Part shown: piece after piece, positions 18,752 to 45,725 of the stretch | Layout: every line of letters begins with the position of its first letter | Position numbering within the stretch: position 1 is the stretch's first letter | Source: Syntrophales bacterium | Lineage (GTDB): Bacteria; Desulfobacterota; Syntrophia; Syntrophales; PHBD01 | Direction: 5' to 3' | Assembly (NCBI GenBank): GCA_963668175.1 | Contig: OY764159.1 | Location: 3,424,001-3,488,000 of the forward strand | Length of the DNA: 64,000 nt | Notes under the pieces: generated by a model | Databases searched by the model: none | What the model was told of the DNA's origin: nothing | Seen by the model: the letters and a program-made list of their open reading frames with translations, nothing else | Program-made: the position numbers and the translations under genes

Positions 18752-19966
18752 TCATTGGAGCAGGTATTTGGCGGCCTTCTGCCTTATCTGCTTGAGCGCC
18801 TTGGAAATCGGGCTGTGATTGGCATACCCCAGCAACTTCCCAATTTCAGCCATCTTCGTAATCCCATTCCTCAGACAGATGACCACCCGCCGCTCCTTGG
18901 GGTCAAGGATCGAAATGAAGTCCTCCCACAGCAGATTCTCATGGAGCTCGCTCCATCTCCCGTGAACCGGTACCGTATCGTCCAGCTCGACGAACGACAC
19001 CTTCACCTTCGATCGCTTGCTGTATAGCTTCCTCTCGAAGTCTTCCTTCTCGTTAGACCAGAGGCTCGAAAAATCATCTTCAACCCTGTTGGACTTTATG
19101 GCATCGATGATAGATCTCAGCTTGCCGTCGCGATCAGCCAAGGCGAGCATTTCGTTGGCCACCTCCCAGGCTCCTTCTTCGCCTTCCCACAGAGTGCCAC
19201 CACAACGCGGGGTGTTGGCTTTGACGGACTTCGGGTATTTTCTTCTGAGTTTCTCTAAATCCTTCACATCTTTTTCATTTTCTGGATCCGTCCGGCTGAA
19301 CGCTTTCATTCTTTGCTCAGCTGCCGAATATATGAAAGGGAGCCAGTAATCCAGGTTATGTGATAACGTTACAAGGGGATCATCTTTTGAAAAAGCTCGT
19401 CTTTTAGATGACGAATTTAACAGCGGCCAAATGTAACACGAAAATGCTTTTGACAGCCGGTCCTCGAAATTGGATTTGAGAAAAGGATCCCTTAAATGCT
19501 GATGCATTCCAGGTGGCCATAACGCAGATTTAAAAAGTGGAAGGTTGAATCGGTTCAAGATTTCTTGCGGAAGCAAATGGTACAATGGAACATATGCTTC
19601 ATATCGTGGCATTCCCGTATCGGGGAGAAGATAAATATTCTTATTTCTATATTTCTCAACCCAGGATGACCCTGCAGGAATCTTACATTGAAAGAAATCA
19701 GGCCTCAGATGGCCTGCTTCCCATAACATATTCCATTGGCTAATAAAGACTTCCTTCTCAATTGTCGTATCATGGGTTTCTTTTTCAAAATCTATTGGTA
19801 TATATACGAATTCGGGCTGTTTTTTCTTTGCCGGACACGGAACGAATCTAAAAAAGTGTGCGGCAGACAAATGCCACACACTCGGGAATATCTCAGGATC
19901 AAGCTTATCCCCCTTAGCAATTTCCTCCTGAGCAAACCTGAGGGTATCGACGTCGTACTCCTTCAT
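18752..19966 (-). CDS. Hypothetical protein with C-terminal sigma-70 region 4-like HTH
   Basis: LDPKERRVVICLRNGITKMAEIGKLLGYANHSPISKALKQIRQK; RBS GGAGGTG. Confidence 0.7.
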   Translation of the reverse strand: MKEYDVDTLRFAQEEIAKGDKLDPEIFPSVWHLSAAHFFRFVPCPAKKKQPEFVYIPIDFEKETHDTTIEKEVFISQWNMLWEAGHLRPDFFQCKIPAGSSWVEKYRNKNIYLLPDTGMPRYEAYVPLYHLLPQEILNRFNLPLFKSALWPPGMHQHLRDPFLKSNFEDRLSKAFSCYIWPLLNSSSKRRAFSKDDPLVTLSHNLDYWLPFIYSAAEQRMKAFSRTDPENEKDVKDLEKLRRKYPKSVKANTPRCGGTLWEGEEGAWEVANEMLALADRDGKLRSIIDAIKSNRVEDDFSSLWSNEKEDFERKLYSKRSKVKVSFVELDDTVPVHGRWSELHENLLWEDFISILDPKERRVVICLRNGITKMAEIGKLLGYANHSPISKALKQIRQKAAKYLLQ

Positions 19967-20148: not shown

Positions 20149-22887
20149 ATGCCTCTGTCCTGGAATGAGATCAAAGATCGCGCTCTGAAGTTTTCTCACG
20201 AATGGGAACACGAATCCTCAGAAAAAAGTGAAGCCCAGACCTTCTGGAACGAATTTTTCGAGGTCTTTGGTATCCACCGGCGGCGAGTGGCAACTTTCGA
20301 GAAGCCGATCAAGAAATCCGATGGCGCCGGCGGGTTCGTGGATCTGCTATGGAAGGGGATCCTTGTCGCGGAACATAAGTCTCGCGGGAAGGATTTAACC
20401 CGTGCATATAAGCAAGCTACAGACTATTTCCCCGGCATCAAGGAAAATGATTTACCTCGATATATCCTCGTTTCCGATTTTGCCCGTTTTCGCCTTTATG
20501 ACCTTGAGGAAAACAAGCAGCACGAATTCCCGCTCAGAGATTTATATAAGAACGTCCGACGTTTCGGCTTTATCGCAGGTTATCAAACCACGTCCTACAA
20601 GGAACAGGATCCGGTAAATATCGATGCTGCGGAACGGATGGGCAAGCTTCACGACAAGCTGAAAGAGTGCGGATATTGTGGTCACGAACTTGAAGTGTAC
20701 TTGGTTCGTCTGTTGTTCTGCCTTTTCGCCGAAGACACCAGCATATTCGAGCGTCGTCAGTTTCAGGATCTCATTGAACAGCGAACCGCTGAAGATGGGC
20801 AAGACCTTGCCCACTGGCTGGCTGACCTGTTTCAGATACTCGATACCCCGCCTGATAAACGCCTCAAGAAGACTGACGAGCAATTATCGGCTTTTCCTTA
20901 TGTGAACGGCAGTCTGTTTGTGGAACGCCTGTCAATCGCAGCTTTCGATAGTTGTATGCGCCAGCTTCTGCTGGACTGCTGTGTTCTTGATTGGAGCAGG
21001 ATTTCACCGGCCATATTTGGCAGCCTGTTCCAATCCGTTATGGATGAGGGGAAACGACGGAACTTAGGTGCGCATTATACAACAGAGAAGAACATTCTTA
21101 AGCTCATCGGACCTCTATTTCTTGATGAGTTACGAGCCGAATTTGAACGTCTGAAAACCCAGCCTCGGCGCCTCGCTGAGTTTCATCACCGAATTGCTGA
21201 ACTGAAATTTATGGACCCAGCATGTGGCTGTGGGAACTTCCTCGTAATCGCATACAGGGAACTGCGTGAGCTGGAACTTGATATTCTCCGGATTCTGGCT
21301 AAGGGAAAAGATACGCGATCTCTGGAAGTGTCGATGTTTGAGATTTTGTGCGATGTCGACCAGTTCTATGGGATCGAAATAGAGGAATTTCCTGTTCAGA
21401 TAGCTCGCACGGCCTTGTGGCTGATGGACCATCAGATGAACATGAAAGTCTCGGAAGAATTCGGGACGTACTTTGTAAGGTTGCCCCTTCGCAAATCAGC
21501 GACCATCGTGCACGGCAATGCATTGCGCATAGACTGGCGCGAGATCGTTAGGCCGGAAGATCTCAACTATATCCTTGGCAATCCGCCCTTCGGCGGGAAA
21601 CAGTATCAAACAGAAGAACAGAAAGCAGATATGGCATCTGTTTTGAAGGATGTTCCGGGCGCAGGGGTACTGGATTTTGTTTCACCATGGTACCGAAAAG
21701 CGGCGGACTATATGAAGAAAAATCCAGCGATGAAGACTGCCTTTGTTTCCACCAATTCAATTACACAGGGTGAACAAGTCGCTGTATTATGGGCAGATTT
21801 ACTCGGACGAAACGTCAAAATTCATTTTGCACATCGTACCTTTCAGTGGTCAAGTGAAGCACGCGGCAGAGCTGCCGTGCATTGTGTTATCATCGGGTTT
21901 GCCCTGTATGATATTCCGGAAAAACGCCTTTTTGATTATGAGACTTTAAAGGCGGAACCTCATGAAATAAAAGTAAAAAACATTAATCCTTATCTTGTAG
22001 ATACAACGGACATATTGGTTGGAAAACGCCGCAAAACCCTTCAGCCTGTACCACAATTAGTTTTTGGCAGCATGCCGAATGACGGAGGTAATTTGCTCCT
22101 CACCAAAGAAGAGCGATCTAATATGATTAAGAATGCGCCAGCTGTTGCGCTTTATATTAAACGATTCATGGGTAGTGAAGAATTCATCAATGAGCAAGAA
22201 CGATACTGCCTTTGGTTAAAAGGAATCTCTCCAGCCGTCCTGAAGAATTTGCCAGAAGTACTGGAACGAGTCGAGAACGTCAGGAAATGCCGTTTATCGA
22301 GTCGCCGATCAACAACAAACGCGCTTGCTAATATTCCAATGCTTTTTGGAGAGATCAGGCAACCAGAGACTGATTATTTAGCAATTCCGGAAGTATCATC
22401 AGAGCGCCGGCGTTATATTCCAATAGGATTCGTGAGTAAAGATGTTATAGCCAGCAATAAAATTTATACTATGAGAGATTCAACACTATACCACTTCGGT
22501 GTTTTATCATCGGCAATGCACATGGCTTGGACACGAGCCGTATGTGGGAGATTAAAGAGTGATTACCAATATTCCTCAGGAATCGTTTATAATAACTTCC
22601 CATGGCCCGAGTCAGTCTCTGACAGACAAAAGAAGACTATCGAAGTTGCGGCGCAACTTGTCCTTGCCACGCGGGCAAAATATCCGGATTCGTCTCTAGC
22701 CGACCTTTATGATCCCCTAGCTACACCAATTGATTTAACCAAGGCTCATAACAAGCTTGATGACGCCGTAGATGAAGCCTATACGAAGCGGAGGTTTGCC
22801 GGAGACAGGGAGCGAGTGGCGTTTTTACTCGATCTCTACCAACAGACCACAAGCTCTCTGCTTTCCATGAAGCTAAAGCGCCGGTAA
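20149..22887 (+). CDS. MmeI-like Type IIL restriction-modification enzyme (N6-adenine MTase with endonuclease and TRD)
   Basis: EAQTFWNEFF, VDLLWKG..AEHKS nuclease, LGAHYT, DPACGCGNF, GNPPF, GRLKSDYQYS. Confidence 0.93.
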   Translation: MPLSWNEIKDRALKFSHEWEHESSEKSEAQTFWNEFFEVFGIHRRRVATFEKPIKKSDGAGGFVDLLWKGILVAEHKSRGKDLTRAYKQATDYFPGIKENDLPRYILVSDFARFRLYDLEENKQHEFPLRDLYKNVRRFGFIAGYQTTSYKEQDPVNIDAAERMGKLHDKLKECGYCGHELEVYLVRLLFCLFAEDTSIFERRQFQDLIEQRTAEDGQDLAHWLADLFQILDTPPDKRLKKTDEQLSAFPYVNGSLFVERLSIAAFDSCMRQLLLDCCVLDWSRISPAIFGSLFQSVMDEGKRRNLGAHYTTEKNILKLIGPLFLDELRAEFERLKTQPRRLAEFHHRIAELKFMDPACGCGNFLVIAYRELRELELDILRILAKGKDTRSLEVSMFEILCDVDQFYGIEIEEFPVQIARTALWLMDHQMNMKVSEEFGTYFVRLPLRKSATIVHGNALRIDWREIVRPEDLNYILGNPPFGGKQYQTEEQKADMASVLKDVPGAGVLDFVSPWYRKAADYMKKNPAMKTAFVSTNSITQGEQVAVLWADLLGRNVKIHFAHRTFQWSSEARGRAAVHCVIIGFALYDIPEKRLFDYETLKAEPHEIKVKNINPYLVDTTDILVGKRRKTLQPVPQLVFGSMPNDGGNLLLTKEERSNMIKNAPAVALYIKRFMGSEEFINEQERYCLWLKGISPAVLKNLPEVLERVENVRKCRLSSRRSTTNALANIPMLFGEIRQPETDYLAIPEVSSERRRYIPIGFVSKDVIASNKIYTMRDSTLYHFGVLSSAMHMAWTRAVCGRLKSDYQYSSGIVYNNFPWPESVSDRQKKTIEVAAQLVLATRAKYPDSSLADLYDPLATPIDLTKAHNKLDDAVDEAYTKRRFAGDRERVAFLLDLYQQTTSSLLSMKLKRR

Positions 22888-23010
22888 TTTTTAAAATACC
22901 TGAAAATTTCTTGACTTTTTCTGAGCCAGCCTATAATCCTCACACATTCGTAATATTATCTCTATCAACATCCGGACCCTTGAAAGGGGAACTATGGCGT
23001 TGATTCAAAA

Positions 23011-23053
23011 GACCCCGTAATCGAAAGAAAGTGGGGTTTTGTGTTTTAGGCCG
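23011..23053 (+). repeat. Terminator-like hairpin repeat, copy 1
   Basis: GACCCCGTAATCGAAAGAA is identical to 23841-23859, followed by GGGGT and a T-rich tail. Confidence 0.8.
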
Positions 23054-23097
23054 AGCTGAAATGTTGAACAAAAAGCGGGGGCATAAAAGGGGAGGAT

Positions 23098-23841
23098 ATG
23101 GCTCTTCAAAAATGTCACGAATGCGGAAAAGACGTAAGTTCAGAAGCGGCAACCTGTCCAAACTGCGGCGTCAAAGTTGTTAAGAAAGGCTATAATAAGT
23201 CTGTTGGGTGCATCATTGTTATCGCTGCAATGGTCGTCGTTTCCATGATGATCGGAGTGGTCAGTCAATGCTCTGAAGAAAGAAACCGGGCCGCCGTCAA
23301 TCAGGACTCTGTGAAAAAAGCCACCGAAGCACGGGAAAAACGGAAGGCCGAGTTTCTCGCCAATACTGAGAAATATTACCAGGATCTCGTCGCCGCTCAA
23401 GAAAGCAAGAATTATCCTAAAGCCAATAACGTCTTATCATTATTCAGAATGTACAAAAAAACCGACTTTAAGGACATTGTGGACCGGGGAAAAATCATAG
23501 ATGCCGAAATGGGGAAAGTTGCGGCGGAGCAAGAGAGGATAAAAGAAGAAAAGGCCAAGAATGCGGCCATTGTCCTTAAAGCGAACATGCAATCGCAACG
23601 CGAACAGATGGCAGATAGAATGGAAACCAATCTTCTCAGCCAAGGCATGGACGTTAGAATCAAGCTCAGCGGCCCGGGAAAAACGGTCATGAAAATGACC
23701 TACGTTCTCATGTCGAGGCCCCTAGTATATAAGCTGACGAACGAATCCGACTTCCTCGACAATCTTAAGAAGGCAGGATTCAAAAAGGTTATTTTTCACG
23801 ACGGCTATAATTATTCTTGGACTTACGATCTGAAAAAATAG
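23098..23841 (+). CDS. Zinc-ribbon, single-TM, coiled-coil hypothetical protein
   Basis: MALQKCHECGKDVSSEAATCPNCG, then a TM helix; RBS GGAGG. Confidence 0.85.
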   Translation: MALQKCHECGKDVSSEAATCPNCGVKVVKKGYNKSVGCIIVIAAMVVVSMMIGVVSQCSEERNRAAVNQDSVKKATEAREKRKAEFLANTEKYYQDLVAAQESKNYPKANNVLSLFRMYKKTDFKDIVDRGKIIDAEMGKVAAEQERIKEEKAKNAAIVLKANMQSQREQMADRMETNLLSQGMDVRIKLSGPGKTVMKMTYVLMSRPLVYKLTNESDFLDNLKKAGFKKVIFHDGYNYSWTYDLKK

Positions 23842-23883
23842 ACCCCGTAATCGAAAGAATGCGGGGTCTTGCGTTTTTGGCCG
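23841..23883 (+). repeat. Terminator-like hairpin repeat, copy 2
   Basis: GACCCCGTAATCGAAAGAATGCGGGGTC then TTGCGTTTTT. Confidence 0.8.
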
Positions 23884-23935
23884 TGTTAAATCTTAGGACT
23901 TATAAAAAAAAGGGGGGCCATGAAAAAGTTTTTCT

Positions 23936-24817
23936 TTGCAGTTGTCTTCTCAATTCATGTTGACTACAGATATGAGTACAACTCTCATGAATGCGAGTGA
24001 TCCTTGCGAGGAGAATCACCGCGCGCGATCAAGCTTCGTACGGGGACTTGTGCAACGTTCCGGTGGCCCCGCCGTCGCATCCTCCGTATTCGCCACGAAG
24101 ATCCCAAAGAGGATTATACAGTTTTGGGATGATCTGGATCGACTGCCTGGAGATGTGGGTGAGTGCATTGAGACATGGAGGAAGATAGAAGAACAGGGTG
24201 TTGAGAGAATACTTTTCGACAAACGCCAGGCAAGAGATTTTATTTGGCGAAGACTCGGTGCACGATACAAACGGGCCTATGACAAGTGCTATCATCCGGC
24301 AATGCAGTCAGACTACTTTCGACTCTGTTATATTCTCGTGGAGGGTGGTTGCTACATAGACGCTGACGATATTTACAATGGTTCTCAAATCCAACACCTA
24401 TTCAGCGATGGTCGATTAAAAATTCAACCTCTATGCTATGACATGGCGACGAATATGATGGTGCCAACATCACTTTTTACTAAACCAGGAGCAAACGCCG
24501 TGAGTTGGATTTTCTATTTTAACAACAATCCGCTAATTGCTGGCGACGGGCACCCCCTAATTGAGCGCGCACTTACTCAAGCCACCTTATCCCTTGAGGA
24601 GGATATGACTAACGGCTTGCCAGAAATCCAATCGACAACTGGTCCCGGAAATCTTACCAAATCGATATTTGACGCTGTGACTGAGAGCGTCGAGATCGAA
24701 CAAACCCTGCTTGTGCTGTGCGATTGGGAAAACGTTGCGGAAAGCAGGTGGGATCTCAGCTATAGGAACGACCCAAGGAACTGGAGACTTTCAAACTGCC
24801 GAGGTTATCAAGAATGA
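23936..24817 (+). CDS. DXD glycosyltransferase (GT32/OCH1-like), start uncertain
   Basis: IPKRIIQFWD, QSDYFRLCYILVEGGCYIDAD, HPLI, TGPGNLT. Confidence 0.85.
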   Translation: MQLSSQFMLTTDMSTTLMNASDPCEENHRARSSFVRGLVQRSGGPAVASSVFATKIPKRIIQFWDDLDRLPGDVGECIETWRKIEEQGVERILFDKRQARDFIWRRLGARYKRAYDKCYHPAMQSDYFRLCYILVEGGCYIDADDIYNGSQIQHLFSDGRLKIQPLCYDMATNMMVPTSLFTKPGANAVSWIFYFNNNPLIAGDGHPLIERALTQATLSLEEDMTNGLPEIQSTTGPGNLTKSIFDAVTESVEIEQTLLVLCDWENVAESRWDLSYRNDPRNWRLSNCRGYQE

Positions 24818-24845
24818 TATGCCAGGAACATGTGGAGGGGGATGA

Positions 24846-27032
24846 ATGAATCTCACCTCCCCCTGGAACGCACCTTCGAAGTTCTTGTTTCGCCTTGCGA
24901 TGAAATGTCGGAGGTTGCTACCGAGAAAAAAATGTCAAGCATTTGGACTCTTGAATAAACAAGAGCGTCCGAGGATAGGGCGCATTTACGTCATCAATCT
25001 GGATCGCCAACCAGTTCGATGGGCCGAGATGGAACAGGAACTCAGACGCGTGTTGGATTGGTCTGGAGTTGAACTTTGGAATCTTACTGAGCGATATCCT
25101 GCTGTCGATGCTAATCACTTCTTACAAGAACCGCTAAAAGATGCCGACATTGATCCAATTTATACACTCGGAGATCAGCTCTACGTAGAGCCCCAACCAC
25201 TAGCGCTACCCACTCGGATAGAACTCAATTCTCCGATCCAAATGAGTCGACCTGAGATTGCAATTGCTCGCTCACACATCGACGTCTGGCGACAGGTCGC
25301 GGAGAGTAATCATGAGTACGTACTCATTCTTGAAGACGACGTGTGGTTTCGATCCGGGTTTGCCCAACATATGAACCAAGCATGGGCCGAAATAGAAACC
25401 GAAGGCAATAAGAAAGGCATTTTCGACATTCTCTATCTGTCCTATGAAGAGGTGAAGCACGGTGCCCCGAAGACCTTCCTTTCAAGCAATGTGTTCCGCC
25501 CAGTACGTGGGCTCTGGTTTCTGTCTGGATACGTTGTATCGCGCGAAGGTGCTGCGAAGCTTCTTCGACTCCTTCCTTGTCGAGGACCTGTGGATCTGTG
25601 GATAAATCACCAGTTCGGATTTCTGGATGTACGGGCGATTAGACGGCCTATCATCAACCAGCGACGCGATATTAGCTCCACTAACTCATATTCAATACTT
25701 CCCACGCTCACGAAAATCGGCGCTATCACCAGTGAAGGTGCATCCTTGTTTCATGTTCGCCCGAGTGAACGCCCTGTGTTTGCATTTGGGCCTATAGGTT
25801 CTGGCCTTTCATCACTGGCAATGGCTCTGTCCATGCTCGGATACAGATGCTGCAGCGATCTCCAAGCGCTCCCAGGTCCTGAACTTGAAATGCTCCTTGC
25901 AGGAGGCGGTGATCGAGTTTTTGACGCATATGTGAACATCAAGTCTTTGGCGGATGAAGCCCGTGCCCTTATAGAGCATTATCCTCAGGCAAAATTCATT
26001 ATCACCGCTAGCAAAACTGGAATTGCAGGTGATAATGATTTAAGAATTCTAGATGATATCAATGGAGCTGATATTGCCTTTCTTCATGTAGAAGCATCCA
26101 ACAAATGGCAGGTCGTTTGCGAACACCTCAGATGCGCACCGCCCGCTTGTTCCTTCCCTGAGTTAGCCGACCTTGGACAAAGACAGCTCCTCTGCGGAAC
26201 CATTGAAGCGGACTCAGTCCTGAGCTGCGAGACTCCTAAACGTGATATGTCGCCATGGGTTGTTGAGCCACGTCAGTGGTGGCAAGGCATTCATTCAACC
26301 CCGATAGAAAGGGGATCATCGATCGTCAAAACTCCCGTTAGAGTCAGCGACTGTCTGGAAATTCTCGACGCAAGACGTTGGTTTCCACGAGACGATACCT
26401 TCTCCGGCAACCTGGCGTTGTTTCGTCCCTCAAATATTGAGTTCCGGTCTGGTCTCGGGGCTGCGCTCAGTATCAAAAGGGAATCCCTGGGTGTTCGAGA
26501 ATATAGCGCTGCATCGTTAACCAGTCATGACCGATACTTATTCGGACGATTTGAGGCAATCATTAAGGCGTCGAACGTGCCTGGTGTGGTTACCGGATTT
26601 TTTCTCCATCGCGATTCACCGAGGCAGGAAATTGATATCGAAATTGCGGGAAATAGAACGGATCGTCTCTTGGTCAATGTCTTTTACAATCCTGGCGGCG
26701 AGGGCGCGAAGTTTGACTACGGATATAGAGGTGCAGCAAGTTATATCAACCTTGGTTTTGACGCATCAGAATCCGACCATCGGTTCGCAATTGAATGGAA
26801 GCCGAGCGAGATTCTATGGTTCGTTGACAATCGCCTAGTTCATAGGCGCGCTGAGTGGGAACCCACGCCGATTCCTCACCTCCCGATGGCCCTCCATGTA
26901 AACGCTTGGCCATCTCGCTCCAAAGAGCTTGCCGGTCGTCTAACCAACCGACGACTCCCAACCGCAACTTTCATAAGATCAATTGCACTGAAAGCAAACT
27001 TAGTTGACGGCAATGGCGTAGCTGTATCTTAA
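24846..27032 (+). CDS. GT25 glycosyltransferase - sulfotransferase-like P-loop domain - GH16 glycoside hydrolase fusion
   Basis: IYVINLDR..AVDA..EIAIARSH..ILEDD (GT25); VFAFGPIGSGLSSLAMALSMLGY; GH16 GRFEA..GVVTGFF..EIDIE..WFVDN. Confidence 0.85.
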   Translation: MNLTSPWNAPSKFLFRLAMKCRRLLPRKKCQAFGLLNKQERPRIGRIYVINLDRQPVRWAEMEQELRRVLDWSGVELWNLTERYPAVDANHFLQEPLKDADIDPIYTLGDQLYVEPQPLALPTRIELNSPIQMSRPEIAIARSHIDVWRQVAESNHEYVLILEDDVWFRSGFAQHMNQAWAEIETEGNKKGIFDILYLSYEEVKHGAPKTFLSSNVFRPVRGLWFLSGYVVSREGAAKLLRLLPCRGPVDLWINHQFGFLDVRAIRRPIINQRRDISSTNSYSILPTLTKIGAITSEGASLFHVRPSERPVFAFGPIGSGLSSLAMALSMLGYRCCSDLQALPGPELEMLLAGGGDRVFDAYVNIKSLADEARALIEHYPQAKFIITASKTGIAGDNDLRILDDINGADIAFLHVEASNKWQVVCEHLRCAPPACSFPELADLGQRQLLCGTIEADSVLSCETPKRDMSPWVVEPRQWWQGIHSTPIERGSSIVKTPVRVSDCLEILDARRWFPRDDTFSGNLALFRPSNIEFRSGLGAALSIKRESLGVREYSAASLTSHDRYLFGRFEAIIKASNVPGVVTGFFLHRDSPRQEIDIEIAGNRTDRLLVNVFYNPGGEGAKFDYGYRGAASYINLGFDASESDHRFAIEWKPSEILWFVDNRLVHRRAEWEPTPIPHLPMALHVNAWPSRSKELAGRLTNRRLPTATFIRSIALKANLVDGNGVAVS

Positions 27033-27131
27033 CATCGTGCTCGCTGGAATCTGCTAGATTACGCTGATCGCTTTGCATATAGTTTTTGTGACATAAACTA
27101 TGAAAACCACCAACTGGAGGTCACTAGCATC

Positions 27132-28796
27132 ATGAATATTCTGTCCTATAACCCCGGTCATGATGGTGCGATTGCTTGTCTGGGAGACGCGCAATTGGTG
27201 GTTTCGATTGAATCGGAGAAGAACTCGAATTACCGATACTCCCCTGTATCAAGTCATGACGTGTTCAACGTTCTTGGCGAACTTGACGAAATGCCCGACG
27301 TTATTTGTACCGGCGGTTGGTGGCCACGCGAAGAGCACTTACTCGGGTCGCATGCTCATGTCGGGTACCGTGGTGTGATGAGGAGCGACATCATAATAGA
27401 CAAACGGCGCCTATTAGGAAGACCAGTCCACTATTTCTCTTCTTCTCACGAGCGGTCGCACATACTTTGTGCTTTCGGCATGTCAAGTCTACCGAAAGGC
27501 ACTCCATGCTACGCGTTGGTATGGGAAGGCGCGATCGGCGCTTTCTACGAGATTGATTCTGAGCTGAACATAATGATGCTTGCCGATGTCCTGAATGAAC
27601 CGGGGAATCGCTTTACCTCGATCTACGGCTTGGCCGACCCAACCTTTCCGAAGAATGCGCCCTTTTCTCGCTTCTCAGATGCTGGGAAGCTCATGGCCTT
27701 GGCTTCGTTTTCAAATCGCAGCACCCCTTCAGCAGAAGAGGAAAAGCTGATGGACTTTCTATTGGGCTCCCCACATGTCCAATTGAGTTTGTACGAAGAT
27801 CTTGAGCATTCACGATACTACAACGTGGGGGTGGATGATCCAGAATTTCGCAACTTCGCAGGTATTTTTAGCGACAAGATATTTGATATCTTCTATCAAT
27901 TCGCGAAGGTGAATGTGAAGAAAGGCTTGCCATTACTCATCGCAGGCGGATGTGGTCTAAATTGCGACTGGAATAGTAAGTGGAAGGACTCGGGCCTTTT
28001 TCCCGAAGTCTTCGTGCCACCTGTTGCAAATGATTCAGGTTCTGCGATCGGGACAGCGATTGACGCCCAGTTCCACTATACTGGGGACCCAAAAATTGAT
28101 TGGAATGTATATTCAGGCCTTTGCTTCGACACGACTGGATCTTTCGATATGGCGCGGTATGATCTCTACGAGGCTGATGATGAAATGATTGCCGACATGT
28201 TGGCCAATGATCTCATCCTGGGATGGGTGAGCGGCAAATATGAAATCGGTCCGCGGGCTTTGGGCAACCGTTCAATTCTTGCCGCACCGTTCCGAGAGAG
28301 CACGAGAACGTGGTTGAACGAAATCAAGCAACGCGAGCAATTCCGTCCGATTGCTCCTGTTTGCTTGGAAGAAGAGGCTGCGCAGTGGTTTGGCTGCGAC
28401 CACACGAGTCCGCATATGCTTTATACGTATAGTGCAAAAACGGATGCGCTAGCGGCTGTTACTCACGTGAATAAGACTGCCCGCATTCAGACGGTGTCAT
28501 CTGCATCCAACCGAAGCTTGTACAACCTGCTCATCGCATTCAAGGCGCGTACTGGTTACGGTGTCTTGTGCAATACCTCGCTGAATTTCAAAGGTAGAGG
28601 ATTTATTAACAAGATAGATGATCTTTCAACATATGTCATAAAGCATAATTTGGATGGCTTTGTGGTTGAAGGGCGAAGCTATATTTTGAAGTCGTCGAGG
28701 AGTTATCAGGCATACTTGAAGATTCGGTCGAGTAGCGCGCTGAATAGACAAGTGGCAGGGTATCGCATGTTTCCATTGGCAATGAACAAACTTTAA
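27132..28796 (+). CDS. O-carbamoyltransferase (NodU/CmcH/TobZ family)
   Basis: GHDGA, HERSH, GKLMALA, AGGCGLN, NDSGSAIG, EIGPRALGNRSILA, KQREQFRPIAP, TARIQTV, NTSLN. Confidence 0.93.
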   Translation: MNILSYNPGHDGAIACLGDAQLVVSIESEKNSNYRYSPVSSHDVFNVLGELDEMPDVICTGGWWPREEHLLGSHAHVGYRGVMRSDIIIDKRRLLGRPVHYFSSSHERSHILCAFGMSSLPKGTPCYALVWEGAIGAFYEIDSELNIMMLADVLNEPGNRFTSIYGLADPTFPKNAPFSRFSDAGKLMALASFSNRSTPSAEEEKLMDFLLGSPHVQLSLYEDLEHSRYYNVGVDDPEFRNFAGIFSDKIFDIFYQFAKVNVKKGLPLLIAGGCGLNCDWNSKWKDSGLFPEVFVPPVANDSGSAIGTAIDAQFHYTGDPKIDWNVYSGLCFDTTGSFDMARYDLYEADDEMIADMLANDLILGWVSGKYEIGPRALGNRSILAAPFRESTRTWLNEIKQREQFRPIAPVCLEEEAAQWFGCDHTSPHMLYTYSAKTDALAAVTHVNKTARIQTVSSASNRSLYNLLIAFKARTGYGVLCNTSLNFKGRGFINKIDDLSTYVIKHNLDGFVVEGRSYILKSSRSYQAYLKIRSSSALNRQVAGYRMFPLAMNKL

Positions 28797-28827
28797 ACAC
28801 GTTGATTCTCTTTAGTTGAAAGTGTTA

Positions 28828-29229
28828 TCATTGCATATGGTATTTCCGAACAACACCCGTAACGACTCCCGCCAGCTTCATCTCCGTTCTTGGGCTGATG
28901 GCGGGGTACTTCGGGTTGGCGGCCTCCAGGACGATGTTCCGGCCGCGGCGGGTGAAATATTTCATGGTCCAATCCCCGTCGACCTGGGCGACGACGATGT
29001 CACCATTCTTTGGGGTTCTCCCCTTTTCGCAGATCACCAAATCCCCTTCCAGGATGCCGGCGCCGATCATCGAGTCGCCGGTCACTTCCAGGAGGAACGA
29101 CTGGCCGGGCCGCACGCATAGGAATTGATCGATCGAGATGATGTCCCGCAGCGCCTCCTCTTCCGGCGATGGGAACCCGGCGGTAACGCTTCCAACGACA
29201 GGTACTTCAGGCGTACGTTCTCTTTCCAT
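28828..29229 (-). CDS. UmuD/LexA-family S24 autopeptidase without DNA-binding domain
   Basis: AGFPSP cleavage site, GDSM (Ser), TMKY (Lys). Confidence 0.88.
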   Translation of the reverse strand: MERERTPEVPVVGSVTAGFPSPEEEALRDIISIDQFLCVRPGQSFLLEVTGDSMIGAGILEGDLVICEKGRTPKNGDIVVAQVDGDWTMKYFTRRGRNIVLEAANPKYPAISPRTEMKLAGVVTGVVRKYHMQ

Positions 29230-29241
29230 GCCCGAAGCTTA

Positions 29242-29257
29242 TAGTACGATCGTACTA
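29242..29257. promoter_or_regulatory. Perfect 16-bp palindrome in the spacer of the umuD-like promoter
   Basis: TAGTACGATCGTACTA; the minus strand reads TTGACT-17-TAAGCT around it. Confidence 0.65.
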
Positions 29258-29284
29258 AAGTCAAGGGGGTTTGTTCCCTGAACA

Positions 29285-29749
29285 TTATTTCAGTATTCTT
29301 TGGTCGAATGCGTAGGTTACGGGATCGCCATATTTCAATTTGCTGAAATCGGGATGAAGGGGATTGATGATATAGTTGAATTCCGTATCAACGATTACGC
29401 TCGGCACTACCAACACCAGTGAGGCTTTTCTTATTGCCCACATCGTGCCCAGCATCTGGGTTGATGCTGGAACTGGATCTAATTTCCAATCGAGCGGCAG
29501 ATCTTTTTCAGATATTTGAACACACAAGCTGTCGTCAAACGAAACAGGGATGTAGACGTAAAGATCGAGTACCGCAACCGCCTCAATATGAACAAGCATT
29601 TCGAGGGCGGCCAGGGACTTGCTCCCGGCCGTGTAAATCAGTGGTGTCCCTTTTTTATTCCAGCGACCACCGTAGTTTTTCGCGCCTTCCCCATCGAAAG
29701 CTGTTGAAGCGTGTCGCGCCTTCGTCATCCTCCATGACGTAATCATCAT
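29285..29749 (-). CDS. RES domain toxin (NAD+ phosphorylase family)
   Basis: FDGEGA..GGRWN..LAALEMLVH..VPSV..NYIINPLHPDF. Confidence 0.93.
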   Translation of the reverse strand: MMITSWRMTKARHASTAFDGEGAKNYGGRWNKKGTPLIYTAGSKSLAALEMLVHIEAVAVLDLYVYIPVSFDDSLCVQISEKDLPLDWKLDPVPASTQMLGTMWAIRKASLVLVVPSVIVDTEFNYIINPLHPDFSKLKYGDPVTYAFDQRILK

Positions 29750-33057: not shown

Positions 33058-33687
33058 CTAAATCTGAGTAGTAATTCTTCGGCTTTCGAGGAATTTGACG
33101 AGAGTGCCCCTGTGGACGTCAAACATGCGGGCCATTGCGCTTTTTGAAATCTTCTTTGCCATCAGTTTTCGGATTTCATCCTCCCGGCCGTCCAGTCGGC
33201 TTTTTGATAAAGCACCTTTCGGCCTGCCCAATTTCTTACCTCCTTGTTTCACAGCAGCCAGGGCCGCCTTTGTCCTGGAACTAATCATATCCCGCTCCAA
33301 CTCGGCCAGTAGAGAGAACACCGTCACCATGACCTTTGAGGTCATGTCGTGGTTGCCCTGGACATCGAGGTTCTGTTTGATGGCCACGAGGCGGATCTTC
33401 CGTTCAACCAGGGCGTTGACCAGGCCGATCACCTCCGGAATGCTCCGGCCAATCCGGGACAGTTCCGAGACGATAAGCAGATCGCCCGGTGCGAGTTTGC
33501 CCATCAGCTCATCGATGCGCCGCTCCTTCGTCGTTTTGCGAGAGGAGATCTCGATCGAGATGAACTCGTCGACATTGATCCGGTGCCGGTTGGCGTAGTC
33601 CAGGATCTCCAGGCGCTGCTTGTTGACGTCCTGCTCATCCGTCGAAACGCGGATATAGGCAATGGTTCGGGGTTGGGAGGTCATCAT
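33058..33687 (-). CDS. Serine recombinase (resolvase/invertase)
   Basis: AYIRVSTDEQ catalytic Ser, ELSRIGRS, AELER, LGRP, C-terminal HTH. Confidence 0.93.
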   Translation of the reverse strand: MMTSQPRTIAYIRVSTDEQDVNKQRLEILDYANRHRINVDEFISIEISSRKTTKERRIDELMGKLAPGDLLIVSELSRIGRSIPEVIGLVNALVERKIRLVAIKQNLDVQGNHDMTSKVMVTVFSLLAELERDMISSRTKAALAAVKQGGKKLGRPKGALSKSRLDGREDEIRKLMAKKISKSAMARMFDVHRGTLVKFLESRRITTQI

Positions 33688-33869
33688 TTTTGATTCTTTC
33701 TCTTTTTGCGATGCCAAATCAATTTCGCAAACCGGGGATCTTGTTGAGCGGCCAGTGCGAAAACGTAGTTGAGTGTGTCGACCTCCTCCTGAGGGATAGT
33801 GGGATCGTGAAACCAATAGCCTCGAACTTTATCTAAATGTACGACCTTCTCGTCTTTCTTGTCGCTCAT
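33684..33869 (-). CDS. Small hypothetical protein coupled to the resolvase
   Basis: RBS GGAGG, MSDKKDEK...; its stop overlaps the resolvase ATG. Confidence 0.55.
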   Translation of the reverse strand: MSDKKDEKVVHLDKVRGYWFHDPTIPQEEVDTLNYVFALAAQQDPRFAKLIWHRKKRKNQK

Positions 33870-34067: not shown

Positions 34068-34316
34068 AACCCTGTTATCTCGTGAATCTATCATACCGTG
34101 CAATTTGCTCATCTGTCAACATAAATGCCTAAAAACTAATTATAGTGATGAATTTTTGATAACTTTATTACTTATATTCAGTGATATAATTTTTACTATG
34201 CTATACGTTCCTTTTATTGATACATGCCTTCATGAATATAATAGTTGACGGATATCGAAAAATATGTATGATTAGTGTCGCGTTACACGATACATTTTTG
34301 TCAAGGAGTTTGTAAC

Positions 34317-37300
34317 ATGACGATTCCGTCCGAACAATATGACCATCCAGGGACCTATGTCCGAAAGAATATCATTCCCTCAGGCATGTCTGTTAAAGAT
34401 GCCGCCATACGGCTCGGTGTCGGCCGGCCTGCGCTATCGAACTTTCTCAACGGGAAATCCTCCCTATCACCCGACATGGCGGTTAGGCTGGAAAAGGCGT
34501 TCGGTGCCGACCGGAAGAAGCTACTCGACATGCAGGCTGCCTATGAACAACAGGAGAGGCGCGGCAGTGAACAGGAGGTCGCCGTGCGCGCCTTCGTCCC
34601 CTGCTTTCTTACCATCAAAGCCAAGCATATCGAGGAGTGGGCCGGCAGCAATATTGAAGCGCGTACCCACCTTCCCGTCTTACTGCGGAGGCTGGTACAT
34701 TCTACCGGCCACGATCTTCGTCAGGTCGACTTCCCAGGTTATGACAACGCGCAACGGAAGGGGTCAGATGGTTTCGTCGAAGCGGGCGCCGCTACACCAT
34801 GGATTCCTAAGGGAAAATCCCGTTGGGAGTTTGGAGTGGACAAAAATCCAAGTGTTAAAGCTGATAAAGATTATATAGCGCGGCTCACATCTGTTAATGC
34901 CGATGAAAGAGCAAAAAGCGCATTCATCTTCGTAACACCTCGCAATTGGCCCGGTAAGACTATTTGGGAGAAAAAAAAGAACGCGACCAGGGACTGGAAG
35001 GTTGTCAGAGCACTTGACGCAAGCGATCTCGAGCAGTGGCTGGAACAGTCGGTGCCGGCACAGGTCTGGTTCGCTGAACAAATAGCTATGCCTATCAGTG
35101 GCTATGAGACGCTGGAGCAGGCATGGCGACGCTGGACCGATGTTAGCGATCCCAATATGACTCCGGAGATATTTGCGCCATCGATTGCCGCTTACCGGGG
35201 GATGTTTAAATCATGGCTTGAGAAAAAGAGCGAAAGATTCTTTGTTGTCGCTGCCGATTCAAGGGATGAGGCGCTAGCTTTTCTGGCGTGTTTGTTTAAT
35301 GATGACGAACTCCGTAAATTCAAAGACCTCACTGCGGTCTTTACATCTTCGGCAACTTTAAAGACGCTTATCGCATCATCTGTGCCTTTCATTCCGATTG
35401 TCCATTCTTTAGACGCTGAACGTGAATTGGTCGATGCCCATCGCCGGCTTCATTGTATAGTTTTTCGTCCTCGAAATGCAGTTGATACAGAGGCTGATAT
35501 AGCTCTCGACCTGCTCGGATACGAAGACTTTAAGAAGTCACTTACGGCAATGGGAATAAGGGAAGAAGAAGTCAGTATGCTTGCAAGGGAGTCGGCTCAT
35601 TCACCTACGATCCTGCGCCGCCGTCTTTCTATAAATCCGGCGATCAGAATTCCGGCTTGGGCTGGTGATGACGAAATGTCAAAGGCTCTTGTACCAATAG
35701 TACTGATCGGTGCTTGGCATACCGAGTCGAAAGCGGATCGCGAAATCGTTTCATCGCTGGGCGATCGAGAGTACGAAACTATCGAAGACGATATCGCGCG
35801 TCTGCTCCGTTACGACGATAGCCCGGTGTGGTCTACAGGAAGTTACCGTGGTGTTATCTCTAAAATCGATGCGATATTTGCGATTGCAAGGATGATCACG
35901 CGGCCAAACCTCGACCGATTCTTTATTGCCGCTGAATGCGTCCTTGCGGAGTCCGACCCGGCGCTTGAACTGCCGGGAAAGGACAGGTGGGCCGCGGCAT
36001 TGTATGGTAAGACACGAGACCACTCCGGTGCTTTGAGAAACAGTGTCTGCGAGACGCTTGTCATCCTTTCGGTTCACGGAAACATCTTATTCCAGGACCG
36101 TATTGGCATCGACGTCGAAAGCTGTGTGGCGGCTCTGATCCGCAAGCTCTTAACGCCGCTGACGCTCGAAAAATTACTCTCCCAAGATAGCGATCTGCCT
36201 CGTTACGCTGAAGCAGCCCCCGATGTATTTCTCCGGATCATCGAAGCAGATCTTCAGAACGACGATCCAATCGTTCTCGGCCTTCTTAGCCCTGTCGACA
36301 GAAACTCATTATGGGATTCGCCGTCACGGACGGGTCTTCTTTGGGCGCTAGAGTGTCTTGCATGGAAACCACAGAACCTCCTTCGCGTATCGCTGATCTT
36401 AGCTCAACTCTCGCGGCGGAAAATCGACGACAATTTGATGAATAAACCGGATGCAAGCCTTCAGGAAATCTTCAGTTCATGGCTGCCGCAGACCGCAGCT
36501 TCAGTAGAAGAAAGGATCAAGGCGTTGGAAACTCTCATCAGGCGTTATCCGGATGTCGGATGGGAGATTTGCACAGCACAGATCAAGCCAGGTCCCCAGA
36601 TGGGCCACTATAGCTACCGGCCCCGCTGGCGCGGTGACGCCACTGGTGCCGGGCACGGTGCCACGCGCAAAGATATATACACGTTTTGCAGAAAGGTTTT
36701 GGATTTACTGATCGATTGGAGTTCTCATGATGAAAATACCCTTGGCGATCTCGTCCAGTCTCTCCAAGGCATGCCCGAGAAAGACCAGTCTAGGGTCTGG
36801 GATCTTATCAGTAAATGGTCCCCGAAAGCTAGTGAAGAGGCGAAGGCTACGCTTAGAGAGCGGATCCGAAAATTCGCTTTTACGCGACGCGGCCGTCAAC
36901 GAAAGCTTGGGGAAGCAACCCGTGACCGTGCACATGAAGCGTATGATAGCCTTAAACCTAACGACCCAGTAATCCGACACGGTTGGCTTTTCGCGAATCA
37001 GTGGATACAGGAATCGCCCGACGAAATCGAAGAGGAGGGGTTCGACTTTCGGAAACGCGATGAGAGGATCAACAGGCTACGTCGCGAAGCGATCACAGAG
37101 ATATGGACCGAATACGGTTTTGAAGGTGTCCAGAAATTACTTGCCGGCAGCGGTGCCGCTGGTACTGTCGGCCAATACGCAGCATCATTATTTACTGATA
37201 TGAAATCACAGGTTGATTTCATTTACCGTTGTCTTTCCCTTGATGGGGCTATCCGAAGTAAGGCTGATTGGTGCCTCCAAGGATTCCTTTGGTCGATCGT

Positions 37301-38420: not shown

Positions 38421-39797
38421 CTATTTCCAGTTGAGCTCAGGCCAAACCTGCCGCAAAACCTTTTCACTTTCTTGATTTGAGCAAAACTCGCAGTCCTGAA
38501 GTCTTCCATGTTTTCGCCGCAGCAGTTTATGTGGCGGCCGCCACGGATCGAGAGCAAGATAATTTTCGTTCATATTTCTCTGATCAATATCAAACCGAAT
38601 TAGTTCAAGCGCCAGTAACGCGCCAGCTAAATTCGAGATGAACGCAAATGGAGCTAATGATTGCTTGCCAGCGGCCGTTATTAATTCTCCGACTCCACAT
38701 AAAGATTTAAACAAAGTGTCAAAAGAGGTTCCAAGAAGAGCATCTTCGATCAGATTAGGATGGATTGCTGCAAGCTTATGCGCGATTGTCTTATCAATAA
38801 ATCCTTTTTGTACATCATCTAAAGAAATTCCCAAAGCTTCCGCTAAATGGCGCTCACGCTGATTTTCCTGCGGAATATGGGCGTAAATACAGGATAAACA
38901 TGCATTTAAATTTGGCTGACGATGGGAATGTATAATAATCTCAGAAATGTCTGTTGTTGACGCATCCAGGACCTCTACTGGAAGTTCATTTTGTATTGAT
39001 CTACGAGCACGACGACTATCAACCGTCGTAATTACCCTTCTCACTCTCTGGTCAGGTCTCGTTTTCCTGAAGTCGATAAAATTTCCCACATAGGCTTTCA
39101 CTTCCAATTCTCGGAATTTGGCTCTTGATGCTAGAATTTCAGCTTTATAATTGTGGTCCACATCTTCTGGCGAGAAGAAAAAACATCTGTTCAGGTTTCC
39201 CGAGCTTACTCTTTTGGGATCAACGACGAAAAGTCGGCCTTTTAGGGGTAAATGCTGAGCCGCCCATATGAAGCCGTTTGCTACACCTCCCGCCCCAACA
39301 AGCACTGCGTCGTCGATGGTAATATATTTTGAGAGGTTTTCCATTGGAAGGCCAACATTTTCAAAAATAAATATGAAAGGGTCTGGACTATTCGCGAATC
39401 TATCACCTCCGATAGTACGGGCGAGAACATAACCTGCCGCGAAGCAGGATGAAATCTTGCGCGTCAGATCGGGTACTGTCGCAACTTCAATGGAGTTAAG
39501 AGACGTTGCCGTATGAACTCTCATCTCTTTTTCCGTGACGGTCATCATTAACTTCAAAGATGCGTCCGTCAAGGGTTTGCAGCCAATTGCAAGCTCAATG
39601 TCACATTCTTCTCCCTCCGATACTATTTGTATGGTCCGCCTTAATAATTCAGAAATATCCGTTTTAAATGCAGCCGCTGACTCTCCAGTGCCTGCGGATA
39701 CTGCAGCTCTGAAATCAAGTCGCCTAGCAGCTTCGTCCTCGGAAATACCGGCAAGGCTCATCAATGTCCTTATGTTCTCAGTTTGGGCATCCATCAC
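38421..39797 (-). CDS. E1-like ThiF adenylyltransferase (BubD/BilD-like)
   Basis: LVGAGGV, SNLNR-like SGNLNRC, TVDSRRAR, CLSC and CEFC Zn pairs, candidate catalytic SLCG. Confidence 0.88.
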   Translation of the reverse strand: MMDAQTENIRTLMSLAGISEDEAARRLDFRAAVSAGTGESAAAFKTDISELLRRTIQIVSEGEECDIELAIGCKPLTDASLKLMMTVTEKEMRVHTATSLNSIEVATVPDLTRKISSCFAAGYVLARTIGGDRFANSPDPFIFIFENVGLPMENLSKYITIDDAVLVGAGGVANGFIWAAQHLPLKGRLFVVDPKRVSSGNLNRCFFFSPEDVDHNYKAEILASRAKFRELEVKAYVGNFIDFRKTRPDQRVRRVITTVDSRRARRSIQNELPVEVLDASTTDISEIIIHSHRQPNLNACLSCIYAHIPQENQRERHLAEALGISLDDVQKGFIDKTIAHKLAAIHPNLIEDALLGTSFDTLFKSLCGVGELITAAGKQSLAPFAFISNLAGALLALELIRFDIDQRNMNENYLALDPWRPPHKLLRRKHGRLQDCEFCSNQESEKVLRQVWPELNWK

Positions 39798-45703: not shown

Positions 45704-45725
45704 CAAGAAATAAAAGGTGATTATT

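Follow-up and report, generated by a model that had tools for sequence, protein, structure and literature searches.

A mobile cassette of glycan-active enzymes with a decayed sulfotransferase domain in a Syntrophales bacterium

What might three soluble glycan-active enzymes make when their genes travel together through bacteria of different phyla? The question is raised by a 64,000-nucleotide stretch of a Syntrophales genome (contig OY764159.1, positions 3,424,001 to 3,488,000; hereafter the window), which carries a cassette of three open reading frames (ORFs; 23936-24817, 24846-27032 and 27132-28796), all in the same direction. They encode a glycosyltransferase (GT) of the GT32 type with a DXD motif, a fusion of a GT25 domain, a sulfotransferase-like domain and a GH16 glycoside hydrolase (GH) domain, and a NodU/TobZ-type carbamoyltransferase; Pfam bears out this gene content as an original prediction had read it from the letters alone. 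The answer that we favour, at a probability of roughly 45%, is that the trio forms a self-contained, mobile cytoplasmic module, probably at the inner face of the membrane, that assembles a short glycan from common activated precursors and also processes and decorates it.

The enzyme families themselves are well known, and it is their fixed combination, i.e. a GT32 partner, a GT25/ex-sulfotransferase/GH16 chain and a roaming carbamoyltransferase, that is without a described function in the literature searched. Text searches returned no function for this enzyme combination and led only to inventories of carbohydrate-active enzymes (CAZymes) and genome notes. New here are the sulfotransferase ancestry, three arrangements of the carbamoyltransferase gene with a probable relic of one of them in a leader sequence, and a single-chain form. 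New too are the dating of the spread by synonymous divergence (dS, synonymous substitutions per synonymous site), a counted association with defence genes, and the contexts of a P2 hotspot and an ArdC gene.

Catalytic centres of the cassette proteins

Judged by their motifs, the cassette proteins hold four intact catalytic centres and one decayed one. The GH16 domain matches PF00722 at amino acids (aa) 547-694 with 99.5 bits against a cut-off of 22, and its catalytic EIDIE (aa 595-599, 26628-26642), called intact in the original prediction, is indeed so: E595, D597 and E599 are invariant in 43/43 fusion sequences of 34-86% identity, the set behind all invariance counts for this protein, as are many loop residues. 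The family profile, when compared with the PDB, finds lichenases at 1e-31, XTH/EG16/Crf1 at ~1e-16 and laminarinases at ~1e-10, and the match to the NCBIfam lichenase model BglS (NF047856) is 99.7 bits, under the equivalog cut-off of 300. GH16 enzymes are retaining, and the lichenase/XTH branch holds hydrolases as well as transglycosylases. At deep divergence this is the best-conserved domain of the fusion.

The GT25 domain (PF01755, 55.7 bits against 24) carries the acidic motif L-E-D-D at 25329-25340, with E163/D164/D165 invariant in 43/43. In the same kind of profile comparison its nearest solved relative is procollagen galactosyltransferase 1 (7e-16), and the profile of the fusion also finds a mimivirus glycosyltransferase (3e-8). 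Enzymes of this family are inverting and transfer a hexose from a nucleotide sugar into a β-linkage. The separate GT32 protein would supply the opposite stereochemistry, as its family is retaining and transfers a hexose from a nucleotide sugar into an α-linkage. It matches PF04488 (Gly_transf_sug) with 31 bits against a cut-off of 23, and its DXD motif YIDADD (24353-24370, in the context GGCYIDADD) contains D125, D127 and D128, invariant in 30/30 sequences; the partner gene in distant cassettes is of the PF04488 family also. The earlier assignment of this ORF holds for the family and fails for the start, the frame being open from TTG at 23936 whereas homologues and DNA similarity begin at the ATG at 23987. 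None of its profile matches in the PDB is significant (YeGT 0.061, PaTox glycosyltransferase 0.11, Och1 0.13).

The carbamoyltransferase matches PF16861 (182.1 bits, 8.5e-54) and PF02543 (78.2 bits, 1e-21). Its H-E-R-S-H (27447-27461) and N-D-S-G-S (28029-28043) motifs contain H106, H110 and D301-S302-G303, invariant in 21/21 sequences and presumably with the roles that the HxxxH metal site and the D-S-G motif have in TobZ. The solved relatives GdmN, NovN and TobZ, every one of which tailors antibiotics, match at 1e-40 to 1e-32; the alignment runs from residue ~236 on and does not include N-domain residues ~36-235. In the TobZ-type reaction carbamoyl phosphate and ATP give carbamoyl-AMP, from which the carbamoyl group passes onto a sugar hydroxyl. 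The final ~25 codons are unique to the window copy, and DNA similarity stops at ~28717-28723.

The decayed centre is that of the middle domain. It matches the sulfotransferase family PF17784 at aa 311-387 with 18.7 bits, under the cut-off of 22.8, and has a degenerate P-loop, GPIGSGLSS (25788-25814), in which I-G-S-G-L-S-S stands in place of K-T-G-T-T-S. Two relatives, P0230 and P0243, match PF17784 at 1.7e-24 (87.3 bits) and 1.2e-27 (97.6 bits) and retain both the K-T-G-T-T-S loop and a TTRD..W..S segment, of which the window protein has neither. We take K-x-G-T-T-S to be the 5'-phosphate loop for 3'-phosphoadenosine 5'-phosphosulfate (PAPS), and the second element to be the R-D-x-x-x-W-x-x-S segment. 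The window domain is without the PAPS-binding Lys/Thr and ~50 residues that intact relatives have, and the Rhizobium and Aliarcobacter copies have lost the G-S-G of the P-loop too. Because P0230 and P0243 keep the loop that the window protein lost, the middle domain is, by its sequence, a decayed sulfotransferase, apparently retained as a spacer or scaffold. The sulfotransferase-like P-loop of the original prediction is thus correct as ancestry and incorrect as a working loop.

Profile comparison of the middle domain with the PDB gives SgdX2 and sulfotransferases (4e-6 to 5e-5). A search with this domain returned 132 matches among 1.84 billion representatives; those of ~690-800 aa hold it at the same place (~aa 285-480), and GT25 and GH16 are both present in the 19/19 near-full-length matches scanned. 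An ESM Atlas search with the domain gave no usable match. Its conserved cysteines were considered as ligands of a metal cluster and rejected, being absent in distant members. The idea that carbamoylation replaced sulfation one for one was likewise set aside, since there are two-gene forms with neither an intact P-loop nor a carbamoyltransferase.

Two further observations concern the lineage with the intact sulfotransferase, found in one metagenome (L042/L043, in our numbering of loci). A sulfatase gene lies upstream of the intact relative (L042:2845-4659), and an ABC exporter directly follows the fusion gene (L043:705-2477), a single case. These two neighbours hint that this lineage may export a sulfated glycan.

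All three cassette proteins appear soluble. Their 19-residue Kyte-Doolittle windows reach at most 1.42, as compared with 2.81 in the adjoining Zn-ribbon protein, which by this measure shows them to be without a membrane-spanning segment and agrees with the earlier call of no transmembrane (TM) helix or signal peptide. A charge calculation makes the GT32, the GT25 domain, the middle domain and the carbamoyltransferase acidic and the GH16 domain basic (isoelectric point, pI, 9.3). The N-terminal segment of the fusion is basic and aromatic-rich in divergent members likewise, its sequence being little conserved, and may bind at the interface of a membrane or to a polyanion. A predicted complex of the fusion (aa 40-715) with the GT32 protein scored 0.01, which is no verdict and evidence neither way. 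A promoter and terminator scan of 22800-29400 gave counts not above those of shuffled sequence (8 vs 8.2 and 9 vs 6.1).

Features of the cassette and of the surrounding low-GC stretch (positions in the window)
Feature	Position	Strand	Basis or remark
GT32-type DXD glycosyltransferase, 276 aa	23987..24817	+	PF04488; start = ATG by homologues
Fusion gene GT25 / sulfotransferase-like / GH16, 728 aa	24846-27032	+	Pfam
Basic amphipathic N-terminal segment of fusion, aa 1-45	24846..24980	+	pI 11.7, net charge +9.5
GT25 domain of fusion, aa 47-250	24984..25595	+	PF01755
Decayed sulfotransferase-like middle domain of fusion, aa ~300-480	25743..26285	+	sub-threshold PF17784
GH16 domain of fusion, aa ~500-715, lichenase/XTH type	26343..26990	+	PF00722
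NodU/TobZ-type O-carbamoyltransferase, 554 aa	27132..28796	+	PF02543 + PF16861
Nucleotide similarity of window copy to cassette elsewhere	23976..28723	+	blastn boundaries
MmeI-type enzyme	20149-22887		low-GC stretch
Resolvase	33058-33816		low-GC stretch
Rep3 initiator	45717-46721		low-GC stretch

Linkage and spread of the trio

In contigs from one genome per species, 34 loci encode the fusion, at 55-88% identity and in at least 10 phyla. Wherever upstream sequence is available (32 loci), the GT32 gene directly precedes the fusion gene, and in 30/34 loci the fusion gene is immediately followed by carbamoyltransferase sequence, two of these copies being cut to 96 aa; three of the remaining four loci are without a carbamoyltransferase and one has a displaced fragment only. 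The two-gene form, GT32 and fusion, was found in L018, L020, L022, L025 and L059, on a Klebsiella plasmid and in Escherichia coli. A different order, carbamoyltransferase-GT32-fusion, is found in Rhizobium, Sphingobium and the metagenomic loci L044/45, L047/48 and L049; in these copies, identity to the window is 35-44% for the fusion, 41-44% for the GT32 and 66-68% for the carbamoyltransferase, so that a fusion identity as low as 35-37% still goes with a complete trio. In L058 the carbamoyltransferase gene is upstream and divergently oriented. The linkage persists across three arrangements, which argues for functional coupling of the trio and confirms that it is conserved as a unit. The repeated loss of the carbamoyltransferase marks it as an accessory step, and this pattern argues for a dispensable partner: the enzyme was rightly counted in the module by linkage, but it is not a constant member, being lost or fragmentary in the two-gene forms.

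The arrangements may be connected. A leader of ~118 nucleotides upstream of the GT32 gene, missing in the window, is common to nine other copies (L001:7024-7141, L007:7024-7141 and seven more). A short frame in it terminates over the GT32 start and is similar to the C-terminal part of the carbamoyltransferase near L-D-G-F-V-V-E-G-R-S-Y, with a best z of 6.9 and z of 1.0-3.8 for the others that map there; the L003 leader and most L007 comparisons failed to map. Rfam has no match for it. The leader is probably a relic of the older order carbamoyltransferase-GT32-fusion. There is also P0257, one natural chain of 1043 aa in which the GT32 is joined to the whole fusion (GT32+GT25+GH16); P0256 is a deletion chimera. 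Fusion forms longer than 1274 aa were not found, which is weak evidence.

Directly upstream of two Nitrospirota two-gene forms (L022:6324-7127, L025:2487-3290) lies a gene for a 267-aa protein with the trypsin-like triad motifs CAHV, DIAII and GMSGGPV, which has no match in Pfam or PADLOC.

The cassette is widespread and thinly sown. Database searching gave 2888 matches to the fusion at E <= 1e-3 among 8000 scored candidates, and the best 120 have 72-87% identity and 650-760 aa. Record titles place the hosts in the delta-, beta- and gammaproteobacteria, and further in Chloroflexota, Bacteroidota, Planctomycetota, Acidobacteriota, Omnitrophota, Verrucomicrobiota, Clostridia, Nitrospirota, Lentisphaerota, Spirochaetota and Thermoleophilia. 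Several loci lie on contigs of 0.17-8.5 Mb, so misbinning cannot account for the spread over phyla. Some host labels may nevertheless be binning artefacts, since L011 and L012 are identical 28,293-bp contigs filed in metagenome-assembled genomes (MAGs) of different classes (Gallionella, Methylobacter). The window's own genome has one copy; the cassette was found in 1/200 other genomes of the order and 4/400 of the phylum, in 9/72,556 plasmids, 4/9 plasmid hosts being conjugative, and in 4/2.9 million virus-classified contigs. The two-gene form is carried by 5/5426 complete E. coli genomes, and the one inspected bears it on an integrative and conjugative element (ICE). Neither the fusion nor the GT32 was found in 50,697 GenBank phage records. 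Broken copies are frequent (L001, L004, L015, L031-L034, pSWIT02, Aliarcobacter), although some are in long-read MAGs, where frameshifts may be sequencing errors.

The fusion gene of the window differs from its 15 closest copies by a dS of 0.30-0.79, which is unsaturated (e.g. Bacteroidales 0.39, Scalindua 0.35, Chloroflexota 0.46), with dN/dS of 0.17-0.26; a second group of copies has a dS of 1.3-3.3. The phyla intermingle on a maximum-likelihood tree, whose phylum labels require 15 changes as compared with a minimum of 9 and a shuffled mean of 17.9, and two sister pairs, Clostridia/Acidobacteriota and Pseudomonadota/Nitrospirota, have 100% support. The G+C content (GC) of the cassette is 0.44-0.54 in 32/35 loci and that of flanks of at least 1 kb 0.31-0.68, and no flanking protein family is common to more than 3/35 loci. 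These comparisons show, at the level of sequence divergence, recent transfer of the cassette between phyla under purifying selection, and mark the trio as a self-contained mobile cassette.

Genomic settings and possible products

From the families and the settings we infer the linkage types, the role of GH16, the membrane association, the acceptor and the biological role of our favoured module as follows. GT25 and GT32 would each add a hexose from a nucleotide sugar, in a β- and an α-linkage respectively. GH16 would act on a β-linkage of the same product by cleavage or transglycosylation, so as to set its length, release it or transfer it en bloc, and the NodU/TobZ-type enzyme would cap a sugar hydroxyl with carbamoyl by way of carbamoyl-AMP. 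The middle domain would be what is left of a sulfotransferase that formerly put sulfate on the product, i.e. sulfation would be the ancestral decoration. The acceptor would be something that every bacterium has, and the basic N-terminus points to a membrane face or a polyanion. Recent copies occur in Bacteroidota, Chloroflexota, Planctomycetota, Nitrospirota, Acidobacteriota, Bacillota, Pseudomonadota and others, and so the cassette would have to be useful with universal substrates only.

No member lacks GH16, which is also the best-conserved part, and we therefore favour a processing role, as in the glucan synthases that combine a GT with a GH, over that of an antagonistic eraser. The reversible writer/eraser switch proposed for the synthase and hydrolase in one chain received no direct support, as a GT-GH fusion fits glycan-processing synthases equally well. 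If the product is a decorated oligosaccharide, the cassette would be a minimal portable pathway of biotechnological interest; if its role is biosynthetic, it would also exemplify how sulfate disappears as a decoration and carbamoyl comes to depend on an accessory gene.

Several points weigh against such a product. No transporter is conserved beside the cassette (34/34 genome loci and the window). The GT25 and GT32 enzymes so far characterised attach single sugars to existing acceptors, so a free glycan would need a primer or iterative transglycosylation, and characterised lichenase-type GH16 enzymes are secreted. The best, non-significant, PDB matches of the GT32 include two protein-glycosylating toxins as well as Och1, which would be compatible with a macromolecular acceptor. 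Nor does plain biosynthesis explain the named or candidate defence genes within 8 kb in 14/31 loci, or a position in the defence hotspot of a P2-like prophage.

These settings were surveyed in two ways, by Pfam for 164 ORFs (on either side, the nearest three that reach 90 aa) and by PADLOC for 278 flanking ORFs of at least 110 aa within 8 kb in 31 loci, the latter without a matched random-gene control. PADLOC divides the 31 loci into nine with named systems, five with candidate families only (L013, L017, L018, L019, L034), four with generic or doubtful matches and 13 with none. The named systems comprise a pAgo with its nuclease and a GmrSD-like protein (L005), AbiE (L007), SIR2-HerA (L011), BilC/D (L021), Wadjet JetC/D (L023), type I restriction-modification (RM) and GajA (L026), a type IIG RM system (L028), DUF499/DUF3780/DUF1156-MTase/PLD-helicase with SoFic, SAVED-HNH and E2 (L030), and QatABC with HmaB (L033). 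Defence genes lie immediately upstream of the cassette and co-oriented with it in six loci (L005, L021, L023, L030, L033, L034). In L030 (124-18080) the cassette and SoFic separate the DUF1156 methyltransferase from the PLD-helicase of a single PADLOC system, with SAVED-HNH and E2 just downstream. Gabija flanks L044/45, the Aliarcobacter copy has Shedu and RM genes nearby, and genes of the DUF262/GmrSD type are direct neighbours of the cassette in L005 and Rhizobium and, beyond an IS21, in Citrobacter. Defence genes are thus frequent beside the homologues (9/31 named, 14/31 with candidates), the association being moderate and counted without a matched control.

Other flanks are of mobile elements, i.e. 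integrases (L001, L014, L022), a resolvase (L011), Rep/primase (L023), a group II intron (L025) and IS110, ISL3 and Mutator transposases (L003, L017, L020, L016, L033), and some are of a housekeeping type: SusCD/GH (L006), LpxD/SurA (L009), a kinase-regulator with MiaB/MiaA (L029) and LeuRS/LptE (L007). The cassette travels as accessory cargo on plasmids, ICEs and prophages and in defence islands, so that a trait concerned with conflict or with the envelope, rather than core metabolism, is most likely what its product serves.

Under an anti-phage reading, or one directed at mobile genetic elements at large, the trio would set a carbamoylated sugar mark on a protein of invader or host or on DNA of the 5-hydroxymethylcytosine (5hmC) type, which GH16 would remove or process, or would make an inhibitory carbamoylated oligosaccharide. 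The neighbours just described speak for it: named systems within 8 kb in 9/31 loci and candidates in five more, co-oriented upstream genes in six, a position inside a PADLOC system, Gabija and Shedu. So do the patchy prevalence of ~1%, the frequency of broken copies and the antibiotic-tailoring role of all solved carbamoyltransferase relatives. In L057, a P2-like prophage whose terminase and portal are 55% and 54% identical to those of P2-like phages, the cassette follows the portal gene, which places it in the cos-proximal gpA-gpQ region, a defence hotspot according to Rousset et al. (PMC9122126). The chemistry has parallels as well, in that a PF02543/PF16861 clade carbamoylates 5hmC in DNA and RNA (PMC8670742) and phage GT-A enzymes glycosylate 5hmC (bioRxiv 10.1101/2023.12.21.572611).

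Much stands on the other side. None of the three proteins matches a family in PADLOC-DB, and PHROGs gave generic matches only (a glucosyltransferase and a Nol-like carbamoyltransferase). Thirteen of the 31 loci are without a defence match, flanks of a housekeeping type are found at several, and an association such as the one counted here is what any cargo of mobile elements would show. A sensor, nuclease, other recognisable effector or 5hmC-generating enzyme is missing from the cassette, its proteins are acidic except for the GH16 domain and the N-terminal tail, and the P2-hotspot case comes from one locus, located where a predicted viral region ends. The phage carbamoyltransferases found have ~26-31% identity to that of the cassette; the best phage-labelled match (46%) was discarded as an unverified 7.4-kb record, in which the gene lies beside a nitroreductase and an MFS transporter, unrelated to the cassette. 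We regard the anti-phage reading as plausible but unlikely. A wider proposal, which we likewise consider unlikely, is a new class of glycan-chemistry conflict system. Its two transferases, opposite in stereochemistry, would work with the fused GH16 and the carbamoyl cap to tag a macromolecule of invader or host or to make a small carbamoylated oligosaccharide that blocks phages or plasmids; such a system would be compact enough for any bacterial phylum, and prophage hotspots, ICEs and defence islands would spread it. Should the role lie in conflict with phages or plasmids, glycan chemistry would join the known defence repertoire. The natural E. coli carriers (5/5426) and enterobacterial plasmids offer tractable models.

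Two of these carriers bear on the idea that the cassette is establishment or anti-defence cargo of conjugative elements, which would protect incoming DNA or disarm a host system early after transfer. On the E. coli ICE the two-gene form directly follows an ArdC-family gene and an integrase remnant (L060:11317-11718). On a Klebsiella IncFII plasmid (L039:5687-10948) it lies, together with a GFA-family gene, between two tyrosine-recombinase genes of ~200 aa in the same orientation, which may be its vehicle, and psiB/psiA and a ParB-like gene are ~5 kb away; conjugative plasmid hosts (4/9) would fit as well. Only these two contexts are of the kind, most copies being chromosomal without transfer genes nearby, and the enzymes have no evident link to DNA. 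We think this role highly improbable.

The envelope is the target in another rival reading, which we rate as doubtful. Here, peripheral enzymes would act at the cytoplasmic face on a lipid-linked intermediate (undecaprenyl-PP-sugar or lipid A-core): GH16 would trim it, the transferases would rebuild it, carbamoyl would cap it and a flippase of the host would export it, with surface receptors altered as in serotype conversion. Characterised bacterial GT25 enzymes act on lipooligosaccharide (LOS) or lipopolysaccharide (LPS) according to the Pfam family description, weak Caps_synth matches were seen, and the basic amphipathic N-terminus is kept in character across the family. Carriage on prophage, ICE and plasmids is in keeping, and a cassette without a transporter fits dependence on host export. 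However, the hosts include monoderms (Clostridia, Chloroflexota, Thermoleophilia) besides diderms, and the 31 neighbourhoods contain no cluster of the O-antigen/exopolysaccharide (EPS), Wzx/Wzy or capsule type, only LpxD (L009) and LptE (L007). Scanning the window ORFs, we found no flippase, polymerase or nucleotide-sugar gene either, and the earlier view that this is not an LPS/EPS locus is upheld on both counts. We know of no precedent for a cytoplasmic GH16 acting on lipid-linked glycans.

The strong conservation of the lichenase-like GH16 domain would also suit intracellular salvage or catabolism of imported β-glucan oligosaccharides, with GH16 as the catabolic enzyme and the transferases incidental, and L006 and L031 do adjoin glycoside-hydrolase or SusCD genes. 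Catabolic logic gives no account of the obligatory GT25 fusion or of the linkage to GT32 and carbamoyltransferase, the cassette is not accompanied by any conserved sugar transporter, kinase or regulator, and the recent spread covers phyla of different diets, which leaves this role very unlikely.

The window copy itself lies in a stretch of lower GC (~16.4-48.5 kb; 0.41-0.51, vs 0.57-0.61 over 48-60 kb rightward) with genes for HU, a Panacea pair, an MmeI-type enzyme, RES-Xre, AbiEi/Eii, a resolvase, an E1/JAB operon, a SET protein, a Rep3 initiator and BrnT/A. The MmeI enzyme and toxin-antitoxin systems reported beside the cassette are therefore present (MmeI, Panacea, RES-Xre, AbiE, BrnT/A). 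By its gene content the stretch (~16400-48500) looks like an integrated plasmid-like island; no transfer RNA gene was found at its edges.

Upstream of the cassette, a 54-nucleotide direct repeat, 83% identical, at 23007-23060 and 23837-23890 brackets a gene for a 247-aa protein with a Zn-ribbon and one TM segment (23098-23841). Each copy contains a GC-rich hairpin followed by a T-rich tract, and its 19-nucleotide core occurs only at these two sites in the 4.57-Mb genome. The Zn-ribbon gene and MmeI were rejected as cassette members, as neither recurs beside other copies. Elsewhere in the island an operon at 38421-42020 (-) encodes an E1-like/ThiF protein, a JAB protein (PADLOC BilC, 8e-12), a CEHH metal-binding protein and a capP-like protein, and looks like a Bil-like ubiquitin-type system from these matches; related operons occur close to the L021 cassette (BilC/BilD) and to that of the Sphingobium plasmid (ThiF, multiubiquitin). 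A 1370-aa protein (34275-38387, +) has an N-terminal HigA-type helix-turn-helix (TIGR02607, 4e-15) as its sole recognisable part, its remaining ~1270 residues having no match in Pfam, NCBIfam or PADLOC. A 404-aa ORF beside the MmeI gene (18752-19966, -) has no family match, and the SET-domain protein is encoded at 43685-44377 (+).

Likeness to known systems

LgtB, Lic2A and LpsA are bacterial GT25 transferases of LOS. The cassette shares with GT25 enzymes the Pfam family and the acidic motif, procollagen galactosyltransferase 1 (PDB 9u7j/9evj) being the nearest solved structure, and differs from the LOS enzymes in that its GT25 domain is always fused to the sulfotransferase-like and GH16 domains. 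The label "LPS biosynthesis" that goes with GT25 does not fit, as there is no LPS-core cluster in the window or the 31 loci and monoderms are among the hosts. The GH16 domain resembles lichenase/XTH/CRH enzymes (Bacillus 1,3-1,4-β-glucanases, PDB 1gbg; 1e-31) in having ExDxE without an extra residue. Unlike lichenases it has no signal peptide, stands C-terminal to transferase domains and has conserved loops of its own, e.g. NVFYNPGxEG.

As a small mobile set of glycosyltransferase genes on prophages and islands, the cassette recalls serotype conversion of the gtrABC type. The gtr systems use membrane proteins and a flippase, whereas the cassette proteins are all soluble and include a glycoside hydrolase. 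With the phage 5hmC carbamoyltransferase the cassette enzyme shares the Pfam pair PF02543 and PF16861 (PMC8670742), and sugar and carbamoyl are each used as marks on phage DNA (PMC8670742; bioRxiv 10.1101/2023.12.21.572611). The cassette differs in that it has neither a hydroxymethylase nor a TET partner.

The enzymes of Nod-factor synthesis differ in their NodC-type backbone synthase and NodIJ exporter, neither of which belongs to the cassette, and the carbamoyltransferase reaches 246 bits against a cut-off of 1000 for the NCBIfam NodU equivalog (NF041651). It has the same two-domain architecture as NodU, and the pairing of NodU/NolO with NodH is a cytoplasmic decoration of an oligosaccharide by carbamoyl and sulfate, as it would be, ancestrally for sulfate, in the cassette.

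The synthases of cyclic and branched β-glucans, NdvB (GT2+GH17) and Cgs (GT84 with glycoside-hydrolase-like domains), offer a further comparison. Unlike them, the cassette uses GT25 and GH16, adds a separate GT32 and a carbamoyltransferase, and has no TM segment, no processive GT2/GT84 domain and no conserved exporter, although one relative of the fusion, a single case (L043), adjoins an ABC exporter as noted above. Like them, it joins a GT and a retaining GH-type domain in one chain at the cytoplasmic face, where the GH would process the nascent product.

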